DNA from: an uncultured Enterobacteriaceae bacterium
Lineage (GTDB): Bacteria; Pseudomonadota; Gammaproteobacteria; Eutrophobiales; Eutrophobiaceae
Assembly: GCA_964402775.1 (NCBI GenBank)
Contig: CAYOEQ010000002.1
Span: forward strand, 1 to 51,738
Length of the DNA stretch: 51,738 nucleotides
Reading direction: 5' to 3'
Shown here: piece after piece, positions 5,269 through 49,537 of the stretch
How positions within the stretch are numbered: the first letter of the stretch is position 1
Layout of the letters: each line of letters starts with the position of its first letter
Notes under the pieces: model-generated
Seen by the model: the letters and a program-made list of their open reading frames with translations, nothing else
What the model was told of the DNA's origin: nothing
Database searches by the model: none
Made by a program: the position numbers and the translations under genes

Positions 5269-6696
5269 ATGAACGACTCACAATCAATTCAGGAAATCAT
5301 GGAAGATCACGCGCTGGAGCGGGTGCCGGATGGCCAGCGGCATGGCTGGCTCGACATGTCCTGGAACACCGTCGGCATCGTCACCACACTGGTGCAGATT
5401 TATGTGGGCGCGCTGATCACATTCATAGCGGGCATGAAAATCGCCCTGCTCTCCGGCGTCATTGTTGCGCTGGCCGGCGGGTTTCTCGGCTGGGGTGTAG
5501 GGCATATCGCCTACAAAACAGGACTGGCCAGCGGTGTCATGGCCAGGATCCACGGTTTCGGAATAAAAGGGTCGGTAATCGGTTCGTCCATTTTTGCTTT
5601 CATGATTATCGGCTTCATCGCCGCCGAGAACGTGCTGCTCTACAGGGGATTCCTGTTTTACCTGGATATTGAAGACACCTTGTCCAATCAAATCATAATT
5701 TACGGCATTTTCACCATTACCTGGATACTGCTCACTGCCTATGGTTTCAGGCTGGTCACCAAAGTCTCATCCGCCATGGTGATTGGTTTTCTTATTGTCC
5801 TGCTCTACATGTTATTCATCATCATCGTTTCCGCGGACCAGTCCTGGATGGATATGGTCTTTTTCGATACCCAGGTATCGGCCGAAACCCTGGAAAACAC
5901 CAACGCAACGACAGACTTCACCAAACTTGTATTCGGCATCAACATCCTGGCCGGTTCCGCGGGGGCGCTGGCGCTGATAGATGCCGACCTGGGACGCTAT
6001 TCCAGGAGTTCCATGGACATCGGTATAGCGGCGTTCCTGGGAAACTTTGCGCTGGACGTGTTCATGATCTTCATAGGCGGCGTAATCATGTACGCAGGAA
6101 TGCCGGTGCTGGTCGAGTATTACGTCAATACCGCCGGCATGACTGAGGCGGAGGCAAGGGTCATTGCCGTGGAAAACCCCGACCGGGTCGCAGCGGCATT
6201 CATCATCTTCGGCGGCGTACTCGGTACCGTGCTGATGTTCCTGGCTAATGCGAAGGCCCAGGTGCTGAATACCTACAGTTCGTCGCTGTCGCTGACGAAT
6301 ATCATGGATGCCCTGTTCGGCTGGAAACCGGGCAGGATCGTATTCGTGGTCGTCGCCAACCTGCTCTCCCTGCTGTTTCTCTATGGCGGGATTATAAGCT
6401 GGTTCAAGTCGTTCCTGATCATCCTCAGCGTGTTGACCGTGAGCTTTTCCGGGATCATGCTCGCTGATTATTTTATCGTCAAACGCTGGTTAAACCGGGC
6501 AGATTCGTCACCGGGACGCGTTCGGCAGGTCAACTGGGCGGGGGTTATCACCATTACCAGTTCGTTTATCCTGTCCCATTATATTTTCAACAGAATTATT
6601 CCCGTTGAATTTGTCACCGCGATAATTGTCTCCCTGCTACTATATCCCTCGCTGAGCATGCTGTTCATTACCTGGGAATACGGTGCGCAAAAATGA
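5269..6696 (+). CDS. NCS1-family (purine-cytosine/CodB-like) permease
   Basis: 475-aa ORF that is hydrophobic throughout, with about 12 predicted helices. The N-terminal LERVPDGQRHGW is typical of the purine-cytosine permease branch. Confidence 0.72.
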   Translation: MNDSQSIQEIMEDHALERVPDGQRHGWLDMSWNTVGIVTTLVQIYVGALITFIAGMKIALLSGVIVALAGGFLGWGVGHIAYKTGLASGVMARIHGFGIKGSVIGSSIFAFMIIGFIAAENVLLYRGFLFYLDIEDTLSNQIIIYGIFTITWILLTAYGFRLVTKVSSAMVIGFLIVLLYMLFIIIVSADQSWMDMVFFDTQVSAETLENTNATTDFTKLVFGINILAGSAGALALIDADLGRYSRSSMDIGIAAFLGNFALDVFMIFIGGVIMYAGMPVLVEYYVNTAGMTEAEARVIAVENPDRVAAAFIIFGGVLGTVLMFLANAKAQVLNTYSSSLSLTNIMDALFGWKPGRIVFVVVANLLSLLFLYGGIISWFKSFLIILSVLTVSFSGIMLADYFIVKRWLNRADSSPGRVRQVNWAGVITITSSFILSHYIFNRIIPVEFVTAIIVSLLLYPSLSMLFITWEYGAQK

Positions 6697-7709
6697 AACT
6701 GGCAAGCGTAAGGTATGAGGATGACGACGTGGTCGCGGTTCACCTTGATGATGAACGGCTTGTTGATGTCAGGACGTTGTTTGAATTGAACTCCACCCCG
6801 TCCGGAATTGCCGTTTTCACGGATATGACAGAAATCATACGCGCCGGCCGGACATTACTGGATAAACTCGATGCCGCTCTTGGCGTTCTGCGGACAGGTA
6901 ACAAACCAGTGCAATCAATTCCCATGCGGGACGTAACATGGCATGCGCCGGTGCGCAATCCGGGCAAGATCTGCGGCGTTGCCATGAACAATTCCGCCAG
7001 CAATGCCAGGAAGATCAGCGCGCCGGAACACCCTGCATTTTTCCTGAAACCGGCATCCTGTCTTACCGGGCATGACCAGCCCATACGCATCCGGCCCTAC
7101 TATGGCAGCGTGCATCCGGAGCCGGAATTATCGGTCATCATAGGCAGCGAGACCAGGGATATTCCCGCTTCCCGGGCGCTGGATGCCGTGTTCGGTTACA
7201 GTATCTTCAACGACATCACCGGTAACGGCATGCGCGCCGAGGACATGTTCGAGTACTGGGCCGTTTATGCCGATGAGGACAACCCCGCTGAAACGGTCCG
7301 GGTGAGGCAGCATCTATCCTATGCCGGACGTTACAAGGGCACGGATACTTTCGGCTGTTCGGGCCCCTGGCTGGTCACGAAAGACGAGATAGAGAACCCG
7401 GACGATCTGAACGTCTACTGCAAGGCCGGGGGTGAATTGATAGCCGAGGATAATACCCGGTACTACAACTACCGGGTCGCGGAAATCATCAGTTTCATCA
7501 GCCAGTTCCATACGCTTAATCCCGGGGACATCATTTCCTGCGGCACCGCCTTCAGGCCGTCTGCCACGCGCAAATCCATCCACCAAGCCAATCTCCAGGT
7601 TACCGGAGGTCCGGTAGAGGTCAGTATCGACGGATTGGGTACGCTGGCAAACCCGGTAATCATTGAAGACAGGGAAATGGGTAGCTGGCGTTTGCACAGT
7701 ACCCGCTGA
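6693..7709 (+). CDS. Fumarylacetoacetate hydrolase (FAH) family protein
   Basis: 338-aa ORF whose ATG overlaps the permease stop (ATGA). FAH-fold segments include GKICGVAMN, HPEPELSVIIG and FGYSIFNDIT. Confidence 0.8.
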   Translation: MKLASVRYEDDDVVAVHLDDERLVDVRTLFELNSTPSGIAVFTDMTEIIRAGRTLLDKLDAALGVLRTGNKPVQSIPMRDVTWHAPVRNPGKICGVAMNNSASNARKISAPEHPAFFLKPASCLTGHDQPIRIRPYYGSVHPEPELSVIIGSETRDIPASRALDAVFGYSIFNDITGNGMRAEDMFEYWAVYADEDNPAETVRVRQHLSYAGRYKGTDTFGCSGPWLVTKDEIENPDDLNVYCKAGGELIAEDNTRYYNYRVAEIISFISQFHTLNPGDIISCGTAFRPSATRKSIHQANLQVTGGPVEVSIDGLGTLANPVIIEDREMGSWRLHSTR

Positions 7710-7750
7710 GCTATACTCCCTCACATGATCCTGCACGGAGACAATCTGCC

Positions 7751-8710
7751 ATGACGACATCCCTGGTCTGTGCCTCCCATTCACCGCTGCTGTATTGCTA
7801 TGCCAGGGAACCCGGGGACTGGGAGGAGTTGCAACAGGCGTTTGCCGCGCGCGCGCAGGCCGTTGCGGAGTTTGACCCGGAACTGGTGATTGCCTTCGGT
7901 TCGGACCACTTCAACGGTTTTTTCCTGAAGACCATGCCGGCGTTCTGTGTCGGTCTCAGCGCCGGGGCGGCAGAGGATATTGGCGGGTTTGCAGGCCCTG
8001 TGAGCGTACCGGAGGACACGGCCATCGCCTGTGTCGAGCACTTGCGTAATAACGATATCGATACTGCGGTATCCTACAGCATGACCGTCGATCATGCTTT
8101 CTCCCAGACCATCACCCTCATGCTCGGCAGTCTCACGGCGCGTCCGCTGATCCCCGTCTTCATCAACTGTATTACGAAGCCGTTCGTGCCTTTCCGGCGC
8201 ACTCGCCTGCTGGGAGAAGCAATCGGGCATTTTGCGCTGGCCCTGAACAAGAGAGTGTTGTTGCTTGCCTCGGGCGGTATGTCGCACCACCCTGCCCGGT
8301 ATTATCCCGGGCACGGCGAGGGAGAACGTGAAGTTGAGGCCTGGAAACTTTCAGGTGGCGATGATCCTGAGTCCCTGACGCCGGCCCAATGGCTTGAACG
8401 CCTGGAGGTGATGCATCATGAGGGCGCAAAGATGATTGCCCGGGGAGAACGTACCGCGGACGATATGCGTTTGAACGCGGAATCGGATAAGCGCTTTCTG
8501 GGCTTGTTGACGCAGAACAGGCTGGAAGAATACGATGACTGGGACCAGTATCGACTGGTGGAAACAGGCGGCATCGGTTCCATGGAACTGCATACCTGGA
8601 TTGCCGCCGCTGCCGCGCACCGGGCAGCCGGCGGCAGGATGCCCGTCCGGGATTTTTACAGTGTTATGCCGGAACTGGGTATCGCCGCAGGTATTGTTCA
8701 CGCCGAGTGA
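7751..8710 (+). CDS. Class III (LigB-type) extradiol ring-cleavage dioxygenase, MhpB-like
   Basis: 319-aa ORF. It is colinear with E. coli MhpB as recalled: VIAFGSDHFNGFF, SYSMTVDHAFSQ, PVFINC, FRRTRLLGEAIG and LLASGGMSHHP. Confidence 0.8.
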   Translation: MTTSLVCASHSPLLYCYAREPGDWEELQQAFAARAQAVAEFDPELVIAFGSDHFNGFFLKTMPAFCVGLSAGAAEDIGGFAGPVSVPEDTAIACVEHLRNNDIDTAVSYSMTVDHAFSQTITLMLGSLTARPLIPVFINCITKPFVPFRRTRLLGEAIGHFALALNKRVLLLASGGMSHHPARYYPGHGEGEREVEAWKLSGGDDPESLTPAQWLERLEVMHHEGAKMIARGERTADDMRLNAESDKRFLGLLTQNRLEEYDDWDQYRLVETGGIGSMELHTWIAAAAAHRAAGGRMPVRDFYSVMPELGIAAGIVHAE

Positions 8711-9759
8711 CTGGTCAGTACCTCTGCAGCATTCCTGTGGCTGGCAAGCAGGCCGGGGACCCGTTTCGGGTCGGCCCTGCCCCAGCCGCATTCGGTGCCG
8801 ATACCAAAGTCCTTGACGTATTCCCGCGCGATTTCGATGCGCTGCAGGTCACCTTCTTCATCATCGTGGTGTATCAACCCGAAATACACTTTCATTGATC
8901 CCTTGAATTGCGCCAGCGGCATGAAATAAGCATGGTTGGTGCGGTCCTTCGGCACGGGAATATGCAGAAAATCCACTTTACGGTTTACGCCGCCGGCGAT
9001 TCCGTTCATCAGTTCCACCAGTATCCCTGCGTCTTTCGGCATAACCAGGTGCTCATCGTATGGCGTGCCGTAACACAGGTGGTAACCGAGTGTCACATCC
9101 TCCGGTACGGCGTCCCCCAGCGCGGCCAGTTCGGCAGATACCTGTTCCTTGTAGTCGGCGGGGCGATACGGAAAATAATTCTCGAAAATCAGTACTTCCT
9201 GGCAGACATCGTACTGTATGCACAGGTCTTCATGAGGGATGGTGTCGAGTATCCTGTTCAGTGCATTCAGCAGCGATTTCAGGTAGACGCGCTGGTAATC
9301 GTCATAAGACTTGTGGCTGACGTACATGTAGCAACTGGCCATGGGCGTGGGCAGGCATACCTGGAAACGGACTCCGGCAGGTATGACACCTTCCTCCCGC
9401 AGCCGGTTGAATACACTGTAGGAGTATTCCGCTGCCTTGTCATATCCGGTTTCAAACTCGACTTCGTCCGGGTTGACGTCTTCCCTGAAGCGCAACAGCG
9501 GCAGGGATCGTAATAACTTGCCGTCCCACTGGTATAAAGACAGTTCCGGCACCGTCGGGTCGATTTCCATGGCCGGGTGTTCCATAAGCATGGTTCTCTG
9601 GAAATAAATCCAGCGCGCCCGTTCACCGGTCTCGCCATCGGGGATATTATCCAGGTAAGGCCCCAGTTCAGCGCTGATTTCGCGAAAGACCTGTTCACAG
9701 TTGTCCATGGCGATGCTGCCGACCAGGTGGACGCCGGCGAAGCTGTTTGATTGATTCAC
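8698..9759 (-). CDS. Hypothetical protein, possible MetE-C-terminal-like zinc-binding fold
   Basis: 353-aa ORF with a GTG start at 9759. YHLCYG (H-x-C) and a later TECGWGR resemble the Zn ligand segments of cobalamin-independent methionine synthase-like proteins. The function call is weak. Its 3' end overlaps the dioxygenase 3' end by 13 nt. Confidence 0.4.
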   Translation of the reverse strand: MNQSNSFAGVHLVGSIAMDNCEQVFREISAELGPYLDNIPDGETGERARWIYFQRTMLMEHPAMEIDPTVPELSLYQWDGKLLRSLPLLRFREDVNPDEVEFETGYDKAAEYSYSVFNRLREEGVIPAGVRFQVCLPTPMASCYMYVSHKSYDDYQRVYLKSLLNALNRILDTIPHEDLCIQYDVCQEVLIFENYFPYRPADYKEQVSAELAALGDAVPEDVTLGYHLCYGTPYDEHLVMPKDAGILVELMNGIAGGVNRKVDFLHIPVPKDRTNHAYFMPLAQFKGSMKVYFGLIHHDDEEGDLQRIEIAREYVKDFGIGTECGWGRADPKRVPGLLASHRNAAEVLTSHSA

Positions 9760-43478: not shown

Positions 43479-44933
43479 CTAGCGCTCTTTCCACTCAGGG
43501 GCGACCAGCCGGCGGCGCCCGTCAACCGATAATTTAATACCCGGCTCATCAAGTTGCAGCCTGTCCCATAACTGGCAGGTCACCTGCTTGTGTTTCGTGT
43601 CCAGTCCTTCGCAGTAATTGGTATATTCACACACTCTTACCTGATCTCCCTTGCCGAGTCTCAGCTTGAGATACCAGTCGGGGTCCGCAAGGCTCTGGCG
43701 GGCGGCGCCTATGATATCCGCCCTGCCCTCGCGGAGCAGGCTCTCAGCCTGTTGAAATCCGTGGATGCCGCCGATGACGACCAGGGGTGTGGTAAAACCC
43801 GACCCGTTGACGGCAGCCTTTATGCGGGCAACGGGATCGACGTTTCTGCCGAACGGGCCGGTTTCATCGGATATATAACCAGGCATGCATTCATACCCGC
43901 TGCGCCCCGTATAGGGATACGCCGCCCAGCCGATTTGCGGTTGTTTGGCATCGTCAAATTTGCCGCCGCGTGAGAGAGACAGGAAATCCATGCCGGCCCC
44001 GGCAAATTCGACCGCATAATAAGCGGCATCCTCGACAGTACTGCCTCCGTCGATGCACTCATCGGACAGGAAACGGCAGCCTGTGCAATAATCGGCGCCG
44101 ACAACGTCGCGTACATGCCGGAAAACCTCCAGGGGCAGGCGTACGCGGTTTTCCCGGTTGCCGCCATAACCGTCCGTACGGGAATTTGTCGCCGACAGGA
44201 ACGAGGCCATCGTATAAGCATGGGCATAATGGAGTTCGACCCCGTCGATGCCTGCCTCCCGGGCGCGCCTGGCGGCCTGGGCGAACAGTTCGGGCATTGC
44301 CTGCGGCAGGTCTCTTACATGGGGCAGGTGCAGGTCGGTAACCCGCTCCCGGTACCCCACCCGCAGCGCCTCGAGTTCTCTTTCCGTCAGGTTCGCATCC
44401 AGTTCCTCATCCGGGAGACCCGCCAGGTGTGCCCTGACCTGCTCTTCCGGCCAGTCAAAGGCGCCCAGCTTTTCCCGGTGATGGTCGGTGATGGCCAGGA
44501 AACGGGAAAAATACCTGGCCGGATCCGGACGGCGGCGAATGGTGAGAAAGTCGATCACCTGGATCAGCAGGCGGGTTTTCCCGTCGCTGGCAGCTCTCAC
44601 CGTATCAGCAAGCTCCGTCAACCCCGGTATGAACCGGTCGTCGCCGATACGCAGCAACGGCCCGCTGGGGATATCCCGGATACCGGTGGCTTCGATGACG
44701 ATGGCTCCCGGCTGTCCTTTCGCAAAACGTTCATACCAGTCCAGCACGTCATCGGTGACAAACCCGTCCTCGTTGGAACGCCATGGGACCATTGCCGGCA
44801 CCCAGGTGCGTTGCTCAAGGGTAATGGGGCCGAGCCTGACCGGTGAAAACAGCAATGCCGAGCGGGCCTCCTCCGCAGTCGGACTCGGCCCGGGCTGGGG
44901 TTTGTACTTTATTCTTTCAGGGGGCTTCCACAT
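43479..44933 (-). CDS. OYE-family NADH:flavin (FMN) oxidoreductase
   Basis: LFSPVRLGPITLEQRTW.PAMV, GVELHYAHAYTMASFLS and ADIIGAARQSLADPDW. The C-terminal segment holds three Cys (CEYTNYCEGLDTKHKQVTC). Candidate starts at 44933, 44972 and 45035 all overlap the end of the Rieske gene. Confidence 0.8.
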   Translation of the reverse strand: MWKPPERIKYKPQPGPSPTAEEARSALLFSPVRLGPITLEQRTWVPAMVPWRSNEDGFVTDDVLDWYERFAKGQPGAIVIEATGIRDIPSGPLLRIGDDRFIPGLTELADTVRAASDGKTRLLIQVIDFLTIRRRPDPARYFSRFLAITDHHREKLGAFDWPEEQVRAHLAGLPDEELDANLTERELEALRVGYRERVTDLHLPHVRDLPQAMPELFAQAARRAREAGIDGVELHYAHAYTMASFLSATNSRTDGYGGNRENRVRLPLEVFRHVRDVVGADYCTGCRFLSDECIDGGSTVEDAAYYAVEFAGAGMDFLSLSRGGKFDDAKQPQIGWAAYPYTGRSGYECMPGYISDETGPFGRNVDPVARIKAAVNGSGFTTPLVVIGGIHGFQQAESLLREGRADIIGAARQSLADPDWYLKLRLGKGDQVRVCEYTNYCEGLDTKHKQVTCQLWDRLQLDEPGIKLSVDGRRRLVAPEWKER

Positions 44934-46236
44934 CTGCGGATACCATATAATTTTTCCAGGCCTGAAATTCATGACGGAACACGATGTCGCTGGTGCCGGG
45001 CGCCTGGGTAGTACCGTCACTGTTATGCTGGTCACGGCCGTAATGGCGGTGCTGGCTCACCCACTCGGAAGCCTCCGTCTGCAGGCCGTGCTGGATGCGG
45101 TGGTAGGCTTCGTAATCGTCATGGCCGGCTATGGAAAACGGTGAGAAGATCAACTGGTTGTAGAGCACCGAGGTGTGCAGCATGTCATCCGATACCCCGC
45201 CCAGCTTGAAGGTCCAGGTCTCCTGGATGGTCCTGTCGACGGCGATGGGACGGTAAACCCGTATCGTCTGCAACGCGCTCTTGAAGGCGATGCTCGGATA
45301 GATGATGGTGTTCTGCCGTTGCTGGGAAAGTATCCGGTCGGTCTTCTCTTCCCCATGGACCGCGACCAGGTCCCGTACGTATTTCGATTCGCGCGGGTAG
45401 CCGATATGGATGGTCGCATTCCCGCCGGACCAGGTATGGCCGTTGCCGCAGGTTGTCATGGCTATGGTGTCGAAAAAGTCGTAACTGGAACCGAACGGCT
45501 CCAGCATGGCGAGCGGCAGCGGCTTCTCATCATCAGGGTATTCCCCGGCCGCCTGTTTTGCAGGCTGCCATGCGGATTGGTGGGTGACGGCAGGATGCAT
45601 GTTGTCGGATACGTTTTCCAGCAGGATCTTCCAGTTGGCGTCGTGCATGTAACGTAATGTGCCGCCGGTTATCTCAAGCTCGCCGGTAGGAGACCGGTCG
45701 ACGGCATTGTCGATGGAAGTGATGGCCGGCCCCAGCCAGCTTGCCAGGTCGGGACCCTGCCGCGCCTGGCTGGCAAAAATAAAACCCCGGTAAACCTCGA
45801 CCCTTGCAACCCTGCGGATGCCGGTCATCGGGTCATCACGACTGAAAGACGAGTCCCGGTAGCCTTCTCCCCGGGGAATATGCACCAGTGCGCCGGCAGT
45901 ATCGAATACGTAACCGTGGTACGCGCAGCGTAACTGCTGCGCCTGGCCGCACGGGGCTACAGTCAACTGCGCGCCCTTATGGGCGCAGCGGTTATACAGC
46001 ACGTAGATCCGGTGGTCGCTGTGCCGGGTGACGATAACCGGCTGTTTGCCGATAGTGGTGGTAAAAAAATCACCGGGGGACTTCACCTGGCTTTCGTGCC
46101 CGATGAAAATCCAGGCATTGCCCCAGATCCGCTCCATTTCCAGGTCGAATATGCCGGGGTCGGTGTAGACCCGTTTGTGTACCCGGTCCGGTTGAACCAG
46201 CGAAGCTATTTCGTCGTTACTGATTGAAGCGCCCAT
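44917..46236 (-). CDS. Rieske [2Fe-2S] non-haem iron oxygenase, alpha-subunit type
   Basis: Rieske ligands CAHKG...CAYHGY and the mononuclear iron motif ENVSDNMHPAVTH. No beta subunit, ferredoxin or classical reductase gene is adjacent. Confidence 0.87.
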   Translation of the reverse strand: MGASISNDEIASLVQPDRVHKRVYTDPGIFDLEMERIWGNAWIFIGHESQVKSPGDFFTTTIGKQPVIVTRHSDHRIYVLYNRCAHKGAQLTVAPCGQAQQLRCAYHGYVFDTAGALVHIPRGEGYRDSSFSRDDPMTGIRRVARVEVYRGFIFASQARQGPDLASWLGPAITSIDNAVDRSPTGELEITGGTLRYMHDANWKILLENVSDNMHPAVTHQSAWQPAKQAAGEYPDDEKPLPLAMLEPFGSSYDFFDTIAMTTCGNGHTWSGGNATIHIGYPRESKYVRDLVAVHGEEKTDRILSQQRQNTIIYPSIAFKSALQTIRVYRPIAVDRTIQETWTFKLGGVSDDMLHTSVLYNQLIFSPFSIAGHDDYEAYHRIQHGLQTEASEWVSQHRHYGRDQHNSDGTTQAPGTSDIVFRHEFQAWKNYMVSADVEAP

Positions 46237-46251
46237 ACGGCACGCACGTTG

Positions 46252-46770
46252 TCAATTAACTGCCAGGCCCAGCAGGATGGTGGTCGTACAGTGGTAGACG
46301 TTGTTGCTTGAGCCCATGCACCAGTTGATATCATTGCTCTTGGACGGAAAATAATTCGGCAGGTCTCCCTCATTGCGATTGCACATGCAGCGATTACAAG
46401 TGCTTTTCCCGCAGCAGTCGTTATAGGCAATAATGTAATCGCGCCCGTCCGCGGGGTTCTTGCAGGTGCCTACCCAGGTCATGGGCGCCATTTCGGTGCC
46501 GGGCGGGCAACTGGTATGGCTGCCGCCGCAACAGGTGCACAGGAAACCGTCCATGCCGCAGTTGCGCCAGTATTCGCATTTCCCCGAGTCGCCTTCGGGT
46601 CCGGAAATCGAACTGTCATCCGGTCCCGTATTCGCATTCGCAACGGGCAGTAAGGGCACTGCGCCGGCGCCGACCAGCAGGACTCCGGCCTTGCGCAAAA
46701 AGCTCCGGCGTGACGTGTGGCGCGCCAGGGAGCGGGTTCTGTCTTGAAACCAGCGATCAAAAAAACTCAT
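46252..46770 (-). CDS. mauA: Methylamine/aralkylamine dehydrogenase light (TTQ-bearing) subunit-like protein
   Basis: 172 aa. The long Tat-type leader (TSRRSFLRKAGVLLVGAGAVPLLPV) and the Cys-rich core are colinear with Paracoccus MauA as recalled: CEYWRNC, DGFLC, SCPPGT, MTWVGTC, IIAYNDCCG, NDINWC and YHCT. Confidence 0.85.
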   Translation of the reverse strand: MSFFDRWFQDRTRSLARHTSRRSFLRKAGVLLVGAGAVPLLPVANANTGPDDSSISGPEGDSGKCEYWRNCGMDGFLCTCCGGSHTSCPPGTEMAPMTWVGTCKNPADGRDYIIAYNDCCGKSTCNRCMCNRNEGDLPNYFPSKSNDINWCMGSSNNVYHCTTTILLGLAVN

Positions 46771-46825
46771 TTTTCATCCTCATAATGGTCGGCGGGATAA
46801 ATGGTCATGAACGTTCAGGTCCTGT

Positions 46826-48040
46826 CTATGGCAACGGCGCCGGGTCGATCAAAAACGGCGTGATGCCGAGTTCTCCGGCCGAGCGCAGGTATTCGCCGCT
46901 GCTTGCGTCATAGATGTCCAGGGTGCTCAAATCCTCGGTAATAGTGTACAGCAGAGGGTTGTCATCCTGGCTCACTGCTATTGAAATGCTGGAATGCCTG
47001 GTCCTGATTTTATCCACCCGCTCCCGGGTCGCCAGGTCATAGACCCAGATTTCCGGTCCGGGCGCTTCATAGGTATAAAAATCACCCTGGTGCATCAGCA
47101 GGAAGAGACGTTGGGTCGCTTCATGCAGGGTGAGAGGCTGCATGCCGCCTATACGCCAGTTGTCCTCCCTGTCCTTTCCGTCCAGGTACCACCAGGTATC
47201 GGAAAAGACCGGCCCGTCGGCGGAAAATTCAACCGGGTGAACTTTTCCCAGCACCGACATGAAATACCAGGTATTGCCGCTGCGCACGCCGGTCTCCAGG
47301 ATCGGATCCTCGAGCGCGTTGAAAAAAGGCTCGCTCCTTTGCGCCGCGGCCTGGGTTCCCTCTTCCGTAAGGTCGATCAGCAGCAGTGCCCCGTCGCTGC
47401 ACAGCGCAAAAAAACGCCGGTCCCCCGCGCCGTAAGCCATCGCACAGCCGGGGGTCATGACTTCCCCGGCAAACCGGCGCTGTTCCAGGTCCACGATACT
47501 CAAGGAGGCCGCCGGTGTCAGGTTGAATACTGCCATGAAACGATCATCGTCGGTCAACGCCGAATCCGCCAGTCTCGGCAGGGTGGATACGCGTTTTGCC
47601 GGGATCTCTATTTCCGCCACCGGCGTTAATTTGAAAGGGTCGTAAATACTGACCACGTCGGTGCGCTCGCCGCGGGTGGTCCTGGCATAGTAGGTTTCAG
47701 CCGAATAGACTTCCCGGTAATGGCCCGGCAGGTTCAGCGCATTAAAGGAATAACCGGTGCTCAGCATGCCCAGCAACCGGGCAGTGTCTCCGTCATACAG
47801 GTAGGCGCGCCCGTCCGGCATCGAGTCCGCCGCCATATCGTAAATCCAGACCCAGTGGGGATGTGATGTCTCCGGCAAGGTGGCTACCTTGCCAAAAACA
47901 TCATTGGGCAATGGTTCACTGCTGACGTCCACGAACATATTGTTTGCGCCGGATGAGGTGGCAGGTGACGTAGGTTCATCCGCCGGTTGTTGCGCATCAC
48001 AACCCGCCAGGAAAAGGAGAAGAAGAGAGTAAAAACGCAT
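46826..48040 (-). CDS. mauB: Methylamine dehydrogenase heavy subunit-like beta-propeller, predicted lipoprotein
   Basis: RGERTDVVSIYDP and the C-terminal ISIAVSQDDNPLLYTITEDLSTLDIYDASSGEYLRS are colinear with MauB as recalled. ATG 48040 has a GGAG 4 nt upstream and gives MRFYSLLLLFLAGC (lipobox). The ORF track start at 48106 is an alternative. Confidence 0.8.
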   Translation of the reverse strand: MRFYSLLLLFLAGCDAQQPADEPTSPATSSGANNMFVDVSSEPLPNDVFGKVATLPETSHPHWVWIYDMAADSMPDGRAYLYDGDTARLLGMLSTGYSFNALNLPGHYREVYSAETYYARTTRGERTDVVSIYDPFKLTPVAEIEIPAKRVSTLPRLADSALTDDDRFMAVFNLTPAASLSIVDLEQRRFAGEVMTPGCAMAYGAGDRRFFALCSDGALLLIDLTEEGTQAAAQRSEPFFNALEDPILETGVRSGNTWYFMSVLGKVHPVEFSADGPVFSDTWWYLDGKDREDNWRIGGMQPLTLHEATQRLFLLMHQGDFYTYEAPGPEIWVYDLATRERVDKIRTRHSSISIAVSQDDNPLLYTITEDLSTLDIYDASSGEYLRSAGELGITPFLIDPAPLP

Positions 48041-48211
48041 CTTGCTCCAGGGAACTGAGATTTTATCCATGGGAAACTTAATCATTTTATACCGTGTTGT
48101 TATCATCTATAAATCCCGGACCGGATTCAAGAACTTTATCCCAATCCTTGATGAACGTACAGGGCAACAGGAAAAGATGATGGCAAAATTTACCGATATG
48201 AAACAGCACAT

Positions 48212-49537
48212 ATGACCGGAAAAGTAACTATTTTCTGGTTCAGGCGGGACCTCAGGCTGGAAGACAACTGCGGTCTCTATCATGCACTCCGGGAAGCCTG
48301 GCCGGTTAGACCGGTATTCATCTTTGATACCGATATCCTGGGCAGCCTTAGAAGCAGGCGTCATGCGCGTGTCGAGTTCATTCATGCAGAGATTTCCCGG
48401 CTCCAGGATGAACTCCGGCAGCGGGGGACGTCCCTGGACGTCAGGACAGGCAAGCCGCTTGAGGTCTGGAAGACTCTGTGTGCGGATTATGCGGTGCACG
48501 CGGTATGGGCTAACCGCGATTATGAACCGTATGCCGGGACACGGGACCGTGGGATCAGCGAATACCTGGAGGGTAAAGCCATTCCTTTCAGGACAGTCAA
48601 GGATCACACAATATTCGAGGAGAATGAAATCCTGAAAAAAGACGGTGCCCCCTATCTCGTTTATACGCCCTACAGCAAAGCCTGGAAGAAGAAACTGGCA
48701 GGGAAGCATCTGGAACCATATCCCTCGGAAACACAGACAAACTGGTTGAAGACCGGCATTAAACCGTTTCCCGGCCTTCCGCAGCTTGGCTTTGAACCGG
48801 CCGTTATTGAATTTCCCTCTCGGGAACCGGATGAAAGCATCATACGAAACTACCATGCAACGCGGGATATCCCTTCCATTCAAGGCACCACGCGCATGGG
48901 GGTGCACCTGCGTTTCGGCACCATCAGCATCCGCCGGCTCGCCGCAATGGCCGTTCGCTACAATGAAAAATACCTCAACGAACTCATCTGGCGTGACTTC
49001 TACCAGGCAATTCTCCGGCATTTCCCAAAGGTAGCAACCCGGAATTTCGATGCAAGATATGATGGAATTGAATGGAGAAACAACAGGGAGGAATTCGAGA
49101 AGTGGTGTAGTGGCATGACCGGCTATCCGCTCGTCGATGCGGGGATGCGCGAGTTGAACCATACCGGCTATATGCACAACCGGTTACGTATGATTACGGC
49201 AAGTTTCCTTACCAAGCACTTGCTGATCGATTGGAGATGGGGTGAAAGTTACTTCGCAGAAAAATTGCTGGACTATGAGTTGGCGAGCAACAACGGCGGG
49301 TGGCAATGGGCCGCCGGTACCGGAGTGGATGCCGCGCCCTACTTCAGGATTTTCAATCCTTATGCCCAGGCCGACAGGTTTGACAGGGACAGGAAATACA
49401 TCCGGCGCTGGGTGCCTGAATATGATACCCCGGACTACTCGACGCCCATGATCGACCATAAAACAGCACGAGCGCGTGCCCTCGCAGTTTTCAGGGAGGG
49501 AATTAAAAGCCGGGTAAGAAACTTGGGGTCAGAGTAA
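48212..49537 (+). CDS. phrB: Deoxyribodipyrimidine photolyase / cryptochrome family (class I-like)
   Basis: IFWFRRDLRLEDN and TGYPLVDAGMRELNHTGYMHNRLRMITASFL...NNGGWQWAAGTGVDAAPYFRIFNP are very close to E. coli Phr as recalled. Confidence 0.9.
   Translation: MTGKVTIFWFRRDLRLEDNCGLYHALREAWPVRPVFIFDTDILGSLRSRRHARVEFIHAEISRLQDELRQRGTSLDVRTGKPLEVWKTLCADYAVHAVWANRDYEPYAGTRDRGISEYLEGKAIPFRTVKDHTIFEENEILKKDGAPYLVYTPYSKAWKKKLAGKHLEPYPSETQTNWLKTGIKPFPGLPQLGFEPAVIEFPSREPDESIIRNYHATRDIPSIQGTTRMGVHLRFGTISIRRLAAMAVRYNEKYLNELIWRDFYQAILRHFPKVATRNFDARYDGIEWRNNREEFEKWCSGMTGYPLVDAGMRELNHTGYMHNRLRMITASFLTKHLLIDWRWGESYFAEKLLDYELASNNGGWQWAAGTGVDAAPYFRIFNPYAQADRFDRDRKYIRRWVPEYDTPDYSTPMIDHKTARARALAVFREGIKSRVRNLGSE

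Follow-up and report, generated by a model that had tools for sequence, protein, structure and literature searches.

A TTQ amine dehydrogenase gene pair beside an IadD-like Rieske oxygenase and an OYE-family flavoprotein: breakdown of a tryptamine-like amine is more likely than a new route of quinone-cofactor building

What is a tryptophan tryptophylquinone (TTQ) amine dehydrogenase doing in one gene block with a Rieske oxygenase and an OYE-family flavoprotein? The original prediction offered two answers: the oxygenase prepares the substrate of the quinoprotein, or the oxygenase and the flavoprotein take over part of TTQ maturation. The window, i.e. the whole 51.7-kb stretch of DNA that was analysed, contains all four predicted genes as minus-strand open reading frames, and profile searches place each in the family proposed: the heavy (alpha, propeller) subunit B (46826..48040; PF06433, E 1e-48), the light (beta), TTQ-bearing subunit A (46252..46770; PF02975, E 1.4e-49), a Rieske [2Fe-2S]/mononuclear-iron oxygenase alpha subunit (44917..46236; PF00355 and PF00848) and an OYE-family FMN oxidoreductase (43479..44933; PF00724, E 8e-40, in two stretches). 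The operon-like packing is borne out as well, with 55 nt between the heavy- and light-subunit genes, 15 nt between the light-subunit and Rieske genes, as originally given, and an OYE start (ATG 44933) that gives a 17-nt overlap with the end of the Rieske gene; the flanks are, as described, a divergent photolyase gene and a convergent dksA. Upstream of the heavy-subunit gene lies a weak, tentative sigma-70-like promoter match (48084..48113, minus strand; TTTATA-18-TAAAAT, 9/12), in a region where such sites are no more frequent than in shuffled sequences.

The first two genes belong to the TTQ dehydrogenase families, as their earlier mauB-mauA-like label implied, but not to the mau type. Both proteins fall below the NCBIfam cut-offs of the methylamine dehydrogenase (MADH) equivalogs (heavy subunit against TIGR02658, 180 bits versus 454; light subunit, 164 versus 197), and the best solved relatives of both are chains of aromatic amine dehydrogenase (AADH; E 4e-49 for the heavy chain); on these grounds the pair is, as far as its sequences tell, AADH-like and not MADH-like. 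The light chain is 53.5% identical to that of Alcaligenes faecalis AADH (aauBEDA; EC 1.4.9.2), likewise a two-subunit TTQ quinoprotein, and 43% to that of MADH (mauFBEDACJGLMN in Paracoccus/Methylobacterium), with which the pair shares the two Pfam families and TTQ chemistry. It has 14 Cys, as in AADH (MADH has 12), and keeps both TTQ tryptophans, Trp99 and Trp150, together with catalytic Asp118 and Thr162, the equivalents of AADH Asp128 and Thr172; W99, W150 and D118 are invariant across 23 relatives. AADH oxidises tryptamine, tyramine and phenylethylamine. The light chain carries a predicted Tat-type signal (TAT_signal_seq, 17.2 bits, cut-off 16.7), and the heavy subunit, unlike that of AADH, is a predicted lipoprotein. 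Its reading frame extends to 48106, and from ATG 48040, which has GGAG 5-8 nt upstream, it begins with the lipoprotein signal MRFYSLLLLFLAGC, with lipobox LAGC and Asp at +2. The close relatives L006-L009, and L004 too, keep the lipobox; L003 has the variant L-F-G-C.

Direct adjacency of B and A was originally set against the characterised clusters, where mauE and mauD lie between the two. It is not rare: B-A without mauE and mauD is common among uncharacterised relatives. Of the 66 AADH-like loci flanked on each side by 5 kb or more, 22 have the B-A arrangement, and 20 (~30%) have no mauE or mauD anywhere in the locus. The window light chain, separate from that of AADH, belongs to a clade (bootstrap support 100/100) whose members are all B-A-only. 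Unlike in the aau cluster, neither mauE/mauD between B and A nor a small cytochrome c gene after A is present; tblastn with 27 queries found none of these in the 51.7-kb window (one 31-bit chance match). No open reading frame there has more than one CxxCH motif, so the window holds no MauG-like di-haem protein, and the earlier statement that mauE, mauD and mauG are not nearby holds. The open reading frames up to 5 kb on either side of the block were each assigned to other, non-cupredoxin families, and, in a further difference from MADH, amicyanin (mauC) is not evident. Because a screen of ~95 loci found no MauG-like gene within 10 kb in any of them, a missing mauG is the norm for this branch; in agreement with this survey, we know of no mauG in the aau cluster.

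The third gene points to what may follow amine oxidation. Its product matches IadD, the Variovorax indole-3-acetate (IAA) oxygenase (7YLS_B/8H2T/9O71; PMC10374108), with E 1.7e-121 and 42.5% identity. All Rieske and iron ligands are identical to those of IadD, as are seven of the nine IAA-pocket residues taken from PMC10374108 (N210, H216, H221, F251, K322, R329 and Y362), among them the basic pair Lys322 and Arg329; the pocket differs at L211V and H311Q, which leaves room for an acid other than IAA. Judged by these matches, the protein is an IadD paralogue and not of the N-demethylase type. The first original answer, in which an N-demethylase-type Rieske enzyme demethylates an amine and the quinoprotein then oxidises the resulting primary amine, thus keeps its general pathway logic but loses its enzyme type and order: an IadD-like enzyme would work downstream of the quinoprotein, on an arylacetate, and not upstream of it on a methylated amine. 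Rieske N-demethylases offer a general precedent, and the protein has some weak likeness to GbcA (89 bits, cut-off 670) and CntA (E 1.5e-16), besides a match to the Stc2-type chain 3vca (E 3.8e-12); the IadD match is stronger by about 100 orders of magnitude, with the pocket conserved. Moreover, since the Rieske protein lacks a signal peptide whereas the quinoprotein would be periplasmic, the demethylation product would need re-export, and the acyl-CoA ligase, thiolase-like and SDR genes linked to B-A in relatives act on acids, not on methylamines. We find demethylation barely credible.

A survey of gene neighbourhoods divides the Rieske-OYE linkage in two: the IadD-like Rieske gene recurs, whereas linkage of the OYE gene to B-A is confined to the close clade. 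An IadD-like Rieske gene occurs in the locus of 14 of 18 clade members versus 2 of 156 other AADH-like loci, counts that are not phylogenetically independent and correspond to roughly three to four independent lineages; this linkage sets the window apart from the AADH cluster. In the close clade, A is directly followed by the Rieske gene, as it also is in L090, a distant member whose light chain and Rieske protein are 68% and 56% identical to those of the window. The Rieske gene lies within ~3 kb of A in L086, L088 and L089, in the order Aldedh-B-A-GntR-TonB receptor-Rieske-AMP ligase; in L086 and L088 the aldehyde dehydrogenase gene immediately precedes B. In L008, whose light chain is 92% identical to the window's, one co-oriented run comprises IadD-like, IadE-like (E 3e-34 to 7yls_A), AMP ligase, thiolase-like, DUF35 and SDR genes and then B-A. 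The same kind of module is found upstream in L003 and L007, which have Rieske2-OYE in addition, convergent to MarR-B-A in the sister lineage L098/L099 (64-77% identity), and in the BEDA-type loci L084 and L085. Its composition is that of iadDEFGH (bioRxiv 10.1101/2025.10.25.684584); our literature search found no published iad locus with an attached TTQ dehydrogenase.

These arrangements bear on a simpler reading, in which a self-contained B-A dehydrogenase is fortuitously or loosely joined to an unrelated Rieske-OYE pair in a variable spot by dksA. The spot does look variable: dksA directly follows B-A in L008, and L006 has no photolyase gene, which marks the region as indel-prone. The GC content of the block (0.58-0.605) exceeds that of its surroundings (0.54), orthologues of the OYE gene (72-73% identity) are found on their own in unrelated neighbourhoods, and in L091 the OYE gene is intact despite broken B, A and Rieske genes. 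However, chance would have to account for a Rieske gene at or near A in L086, L088, L089 and L090, for iad-like modules flanking B-A in seven loci (L003, L007, L008, L098, L099, L084 and L085), and for the tight spacing and overlapping reading frames of the window. We consider it unlikely.

The second original answer was that the Rieske/OYE pair helps to build TTQ, perhaps by carrying out the first, MauG-independent Trp hydroxylation of the light chain, in place of the mauE/D/G functions not found in the window. A flavoprotein partner would have a parallel in LodB, which LodA-type CTQ enzymes require, and the Tat signal of the light chain makes cytoplasmic modification before export conceivable. 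TTQ formation, however, needs C6/C7 of the indole. IadD-type enzymes do oxygenate the indole ring, but they attack it at C2/C3 (PMC10374108), and Lys322 and Arg329, which belong to a small-molecule site, are kept. The relatives also argue against such a role: B and A are intact in L008 and L004/L005 with neither a Rieske gene after A nor an OYE gene, nearly all of the AADH-like loci that lack E/D and a nearby MauG lack Rieske and OYE too, and members of the OYE family are found widely in the absence of B-A. This disfavours the cofactor route, which we regard as highly improbable.

We propose instead that the four genes form a catabolic module whose substrate would be an aromatic (aryl-ethyl) primary amine, with tryptamine or one of its close analogues as the most plausible candidate. 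We give this proposal somewhat better than even chances; breakdown of a tryptamine-like amine is the most likely reading, ahead of a new route of quinone-cofactor building. The two subunits would be exported, A by its Tat signal and B as a lipoprotein on the inner membrane, and would assemble into a TTQ aromatic-amine dehydrogenase that turns the amine into an aryl-acetaldehyde and ammonium in the periplasm. An aldehyde dehydrogenase, whose gene is unlinked here, would convert the aldehyde into an aryl-acetate, an indole-3-acetate-like acid. In the cytoplasm, the IadD-paralogous Rieske enzyme would then oxygenate this acid, as IadCDE does auxin. TTQ maturation and the electron acceptor would be provided by genes outside the window. 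The pathway is locally incomplete, since the window contains no gene for an aldehyde dehydrogenase, an IadE-like beta subunit or a reductase and no iadF/G/H-like gene; the iad locus differs in having IadE, the PDR-type reductase IadC and iadF-J.

Lastly, the OYE-type FMN protein, perhaps with an Fe-S cluster, would be a lineage-specific addition to the catabolic module, supplying electrons or carrying out an auxiliary redox reaction on an intermediate of the pathway. From ATG 44933 it comprises 484 aa (homologues, 482-490 aa), has the PF00724 TIM barrel and falls below every NCBIfam cut-off. Foldseek searches with its AF2 model (pLDDT 80.5, pTM 0.85) place it near both OYEs, in particular thermophilic-like ones, and FMN/Fe-S-domain enzymes, namely the N-terminal domains of 2-naphthoyl-CoA reductase (NCR), 2,4-dienoyl-CoA reductase (DCR) and TMADH, as well as histamine dehydrogenase. 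A ~90-aa insertion in the barrel distinguishes it from both groups, and, unlike the FMN/Fe-S reductases, it has no C-terminal FAD/NAD(P)H domains. The family has six (near-)invariant Cys, including C435-x5-C441-x11-C453; C349, C435, C441 and C453 are invariant. The C-x11-C spacing after the barrel resembles that of the 4Fe-4S motif in the FMN/Fe-S domain of 2-enoate reductase, DCR, TMADH and NCR; the motif region of the window protein holds only three Cys, which keeps cluster binding putative, and model confidence is low exactly at the loops of the invariant Cys.

Such a cluster would suit a protein that replaces IadC and donates electrons specifically to an IadD-type Rieske enzyme lacking a beta subunit. 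This role is compatible with the catabolic module and agrees with the overlap of the two genes and with the lack of reductase, ferredoxin and beta-subunit genes nearby. However, L086, L088 and L090 carry the Rieske gene but no OYE gene, OYE orthologues occur where there is no IadD-like Rieske gene, and the known partner, IadC, belongs to a different fold class, so that we rate a dedicated donor as quite unlikely. Across many MAGs, members of the OYE family are more than 70% identical.

The four genes lie on the minus strand in close succession: the heavy subunit (B) of a tryptophan tryptophylquinone (TTQ) amine dehydrogenase (open reading frame 46826-48106, with an ATG at 48040 preceded by GGAG; PF06433, E 1e-48, covering profile positions 18-339 of 343), the light subunit (A) (46252-46770; PF02975, E 1.4e-49), the alpha subunit of a Rieske oxygenase (44917-46236; PF00355 and PF00848) and an Old Yellow Enzyme (OYE)-family FMN flavoprotein (43479 to its most likely start, the ATG at 44933; PF00724, E 8e-40). 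Profile searches thus confirm the families assigned in the original prediction, and the packing it described is equally borne out, with gaps of 55 nt between B and A and 15 nt between A and the Rieske gene, and a 17-nt overlap of the OYE start with the Rieske stop. This start gives an OYE of 484 aa, the same as the homologue length. A divergent photolyase gene and convergent dksA/queF flank the block, and the remainder of the window is occupied by housekeeping genes (fab genes, lepA/lepB, rpoE, ligA, smc). A promoter and terminator scan of the region returned site counts not above those of shuffled sequences. The GC content of the block (43479-48040) is 0.58-0.605, compared with 0.54 ± 0.03 for the window, and reaches the highest value anywhere in the window within the OYE gene, a slight deviation that would fit uptake of the block as a unit. 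The photolyase gene (48212-49537, plus strand; segment 48142-49622) is absent from a 92%-identical relative (L006, OZ244846.1), where the heavy-subunit gene directly follows alpha/beta-hydrolase and luciferase-like genes, and therefore represents a strain-level indel.

The quinoprotein had been described as mau-like, which holds for the superfamily (PF06433/PF02975) but not for methylamine dehydrogenase (MADH) proper. Both subunits fall below the cut-offs of the NCBIfam MADH equivalogs TIGR02658/TIGR02659 (heavy, 180 bits vs 454; light, 164 vs 197), and their closest solved structures are the chains of Alcaligenes faecalis aromatic amine dehydrogenase (AADH; light, E 1e-45; heavy, E 4e-49). 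With 53.5% identity, the light chain is nearer to AADH than to MADH (43%), and it contains 14 cysteines, as in AADH, as opposed to 12 in MADH. Its Trp99 and Trp150, the TTQ pair, align with AADH Trp109 and Trp160, and Asp118 and Thr162 with Asp128 and Thr172; W99, W150 and D118 do not vary among 23 diverse relatives. Since the chain retains both tryptophans, Asp118, Thr162 and all 14 cysteines and also passes the Tat-signal model (17.2 bits; cut-off, 16.7), it looks, on sequence evidence, like a functional TTQ chain. Read from ATG 48040, the heavy chain starts with MRFYSLLLLFLAGC-D (47998-48040), a predicted lipoprotein signal peptide in which the lipobox LAGC is followed by Asp, suggesting that the quinoprotein may be tethered to the inner membrane. 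Both subunits are predicted to be exported to the periplasm, the light one by its Tat signal and the heavy one by its lipoprotein signal. The lipobox and a Pro/Ala/Ser-rich linker are kept in the close clade, i.e., the nearest relatives of the window, and the lipobox is present in the homologous loci L004 and L006-L009. The pattern used is also matched by a few loci in which mauE and mauD separate B from A (B-E-D-A; L049, L075, L084), and the comparable VLNAC motif in the L018 heavy chain falls outside it.

The absence of mauE, mauD and mauG, originally noted near the block, extends to the entire 51.7-kb window, in which tblastn with 27 MauE, MauD and small-cytochrome queries gave no real match and no ORF contains more than one CxxCH motif. 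The window accordingly differs from mau/aau-type clusters, where E and D separate B and A, and, having no MauG-like ORF, from mau-type clusters with their linked di-haem MauG. Our survey covered 80 loci from reference genomes, 80 from metagenomes and 14 around individual homologues; genes were called with homology-weighted selection and clustered, and cluster identities were confirmed by Pfam (MauE, PF07291; MauD, redoxin-like). The most frequent gene order in AADH-like loci is B-mauE-mauD-A with the gene of a small CxxCH protein next, an arrangement like that of aauBEDA. Of the 66 light-chain genes that have 5 kb or more of sequence on either side, 44 come with E/D and 22 are in a B-A layout, 20 of the latter without E/D anywhere in the locus. 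The adjacency of B and A, presented in the original prediction as a departure from the mau/aau layout, is therefore genuine but not exceptional: B-A pairs without E/D make up about one third of the AADH-like branch, and the textbook B-E-D-A layout fits only about two thirds of the AADH-like loci surveyed. Likewise, none of ~95 AADH-like loci has a MauG-like protein (>300 aa, two haem motifs) within 10 kb, so that a locus of this branch normally lacks mauG. As a B-A pair stands beside a complete B-E-D-A cluster in L019 and L068, maturation in trans is the economical assumption.

AADH-like pairs are duplicated, in tandem or convergently, at several loci (L019, L055/L056, L068, L101/L104, L134, L167), either as B-A next to B-E-D-A or as two B-A pairs with one common cytochrome, which hints at paralogous enzymes with common maturation genes. 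In most B-E-D-A loci (>100 loci; e.g., L044:1944-2444), the gene behind that of the light chain encodes the small CxxCH-motif protein, of about 130-170 aa. One representative gave no Pfam match at E 1e-3; the protein, which does not occur in the clade of the window, probably acts as a dedicated cytochrome c acceptor.

A neighbour-joining tree of light-chain core sequences, with the root set on MADH, places the window together with L001-L010 and L086-L090 (bootstrap 100/100). With the metagenome loci added, this clade comprises 18 tips, all devoid of E/D and of a cytochrome after A, and its successive sisters (L102, L097-L099, L011) are all of the B-A type. This well-supported B-A-only subfamily, whose heavy subunit is a predicted lipoprotein and whose loci have no cytochrome gene alongside, provides a defined genome set for work on TTQ biogenesis, the question for these genomes being whether MauE and MauD work in trans or are not needed at all.

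The best solved matches of the Rieske protein (7YLS_B/8H2T and 9O71, E 1.7e-121) are all IadD, the alpha subunit of the Variovorax indole-3-acetate (IAA) oxygenase IadDE; benzene and biphenyl dioxygenases come next, at ~1e-46. Identity to IadD is 42.5%, and all metal ligands are the same, both the Rieske Cys/His residues (equivalents of C85, H87, C106 and H109) and the His-His-Asp iron triad (H216, H221, D377). Seven of the nine published IAA-pocket residues of IadD (N210, L211, H216, H221, F251, H311, K322, R329, Y362; PMC10374108) are identical in the window protein, including Lys322 and Arg329, the changes being L211V and H311Q. The complete pocket (9/9) is found in 71 more distant homologues, ~50% identical to the window protein, which makes the window type a distinct sub-branch. 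The oxygenase had originally been likened to N-demethylases of the Stc2/GbcA/CntA type. It does match CntA (E 1.5e-16) and Stc2-type 3vca (3.8e-12), but IadD is so far ahead, and the GbcA score so low (89 bits vs a 670 cut-off), that the idea fails, and N-demethylation by this enzyme is scarcely credible. The IadCDE system also includes the beta subunit IadE and the phthalate-dioxygenase-reductase (PDR)-type reductase IadC, neither of which lies beside the Rieske gene here. No IadE-like match was obtained by tblastn of the window, and an IadE-like gene is located upstream of B-A only in L003, L007 and L008.

IadD-like genes recur next to B-A pairs. In the window and its close clade (L001, L003, L006, L007, L009, L010, L095, L096) the IadD-like Rieske gene directly follows A, as does the Rieske gene of the more distant clade member L090 (light chain 68%, Rieske 56% identical), and in L086, L088 and L089 the order is Aldedh-B-A-GntR-TonB receptor-Rieske-AMP ligase. 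In L008, a co-oriented run of IadD-like, IadE-like (E 3e-34 against 7yls_A), AMP ligase, thiolase-like, DUF35 and SDR genes precedes B-A; L003 and L007 have the same iad-like module upstream, plus a Rieske2-OYE pair. The module is also convergent with MarR-B-A in the sister lineage L098 and L099 (64-77% identity) and present in L084 and L085, which are of the B-E-D-A type. Its composition in these relatives agrees with the published functions of iadDEFGH, namely oxygenase, acyl-CoA synthetase, thiolase and dehydrogenase (bioRxiv 10.1101/2025.10.25.684584). An IadD-like gene is present in the locus of 14 of the 18 clade tips, which are phylogenetically non-independent, vs 2 of 156 other light-chain genes, and we estimate that three or four independent lineages underlie the linkage. 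A chance adjacency of these genes is one alternative, which, given the recurrence across lineages, we regard as unlikely. At L098:4086-6405, B is immediately preceded by the gene of a MarR-family regulator; in Variovorax, auxin-binding MarR regulators control the iad locus. Several relatives (L003, L007, L091) have a gene for an Nramp transporter upstream of B.

The Rieske-OYE linkage for which the original prediction proposed a survey recurs only in part: the IadD-like Rieske gene recurs with B-A, but the OYE is linked to B-A-Rieske in the close clade only, and orthologues with 72-73% identity stand alone in other contexts. Sequence identity within the family exceeds 70% over many MAGs, some of them labelled Alpha- and Gammaproteobacteria, with a constant length of 482-490 aa. 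In L091:4800-9476, the OYE gene (76% identical) and the adjacent dksA are undamaged, whereas the coding sequences of B and A are each broken up among three reading frames and the Rieske gene is disrupted as well; this locus is either an operon in decay or the product of an error-prone long-read assembly. The OYE barrel contains an insertion of ~90 aa, and six cysteines are (near-)invariant (286, 293, 349, 435, 441, 453). The cysteines spaced as C435-x5-C441-x11-C453 resemble the Fe-S motif of DCR and TMADH. The enoate reductase/DCR/TMADH group combines a 4Fe-4S motif of four cysteines with FAD/NAD(P)H domains at the C-terminus, whereas the motif region of the window OYE holds three cysteines alone and the protein ends at residue 484, without such domains; C349 is a possible candidate for the fourth ligand of a putative cluster. 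The AF2 model (pLDDT 80.5, pTM 0.85) is least confident at the Cys-motif loops, and a Foldseek search with it retrieved OYEs at E 1e-20, classical OYEs and the N-domains of Fe-S flavoenzymes both being matched and not separable. We also considered IadC as an OYE-type reductase, in which case Rieske and OYE would mirror the IadD-IadC pair, and rejected it, IadC being of the PDR type. The overlapping genes are suggestive of an OYE that serves as the Rieske reductase, but with the stand-alone orthologues this role appears improbable. Conserved over 484 aa with invariant cysteines, the family is a separate target for study.

Based on these observations, we propose that the TTQ dehydrogenase feeds the IadD-type oxygenase, a general logic that we consider somewhat probable. 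From family membership, conserved residues and gene linkage, we infer the substrate, the reaction order and the localisation as follows. The periplasmic, membrane-tethered quinoprotein would oxidise an aryl-ethylamine, for which tryptamine is our best, and more tentative, guess; an aldehyde dehydrogenase would convert the product into the aryl-acetate, which the cytoplasmic IadD paralogue would then oxygenate, the OYE being an accessory in the pathway. The absence of mauE, mauD and mauG from the window might instead point to a role of the Rieske protein and OYE in TTQ cofactor maturation. Considering the largely conserved IAA pocket, this seems very improbable; still less probable is its specific form, in which the B-A-only clade would make TTQ without MauE/MauD/MauG-type helpers, the IadD-type oxygenase, with the OYE as electron donor, carrying out the first Trp hydroxylation of the light chain in the cytoplasm prior to Tat export.

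All four parts belong to known families; the novelty lies in a lipoprotein subfamily with B-A alone and in the coupling of this subfamily to iad-type genes, a combination for which a literature search found no description. If the proposed pathway is correct, a TTQ quinoprotein would supply an iad-type route of auxin degradation, the turnover of tryptamine and related biogenic amines would be joined to indole-3-acetate catabolism in uncultured Gammaproteobacteria, and the iad system would reach beyond plant-associated Variovorax. Lastly, at 5269-9759, ~35 kb from the block, the window carries a 475-aa ORF, a fumarylacetoacetate-hydrolase-family gene and a LigB-type extradiol dioxygenase gene. 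The ORF, for which Pfam gave no match at E 1e-3, may encode a permease, a guess made from its N-terminus, and the genes of this segment possibly provide aromatic ring-cleavage functions in the same genome.
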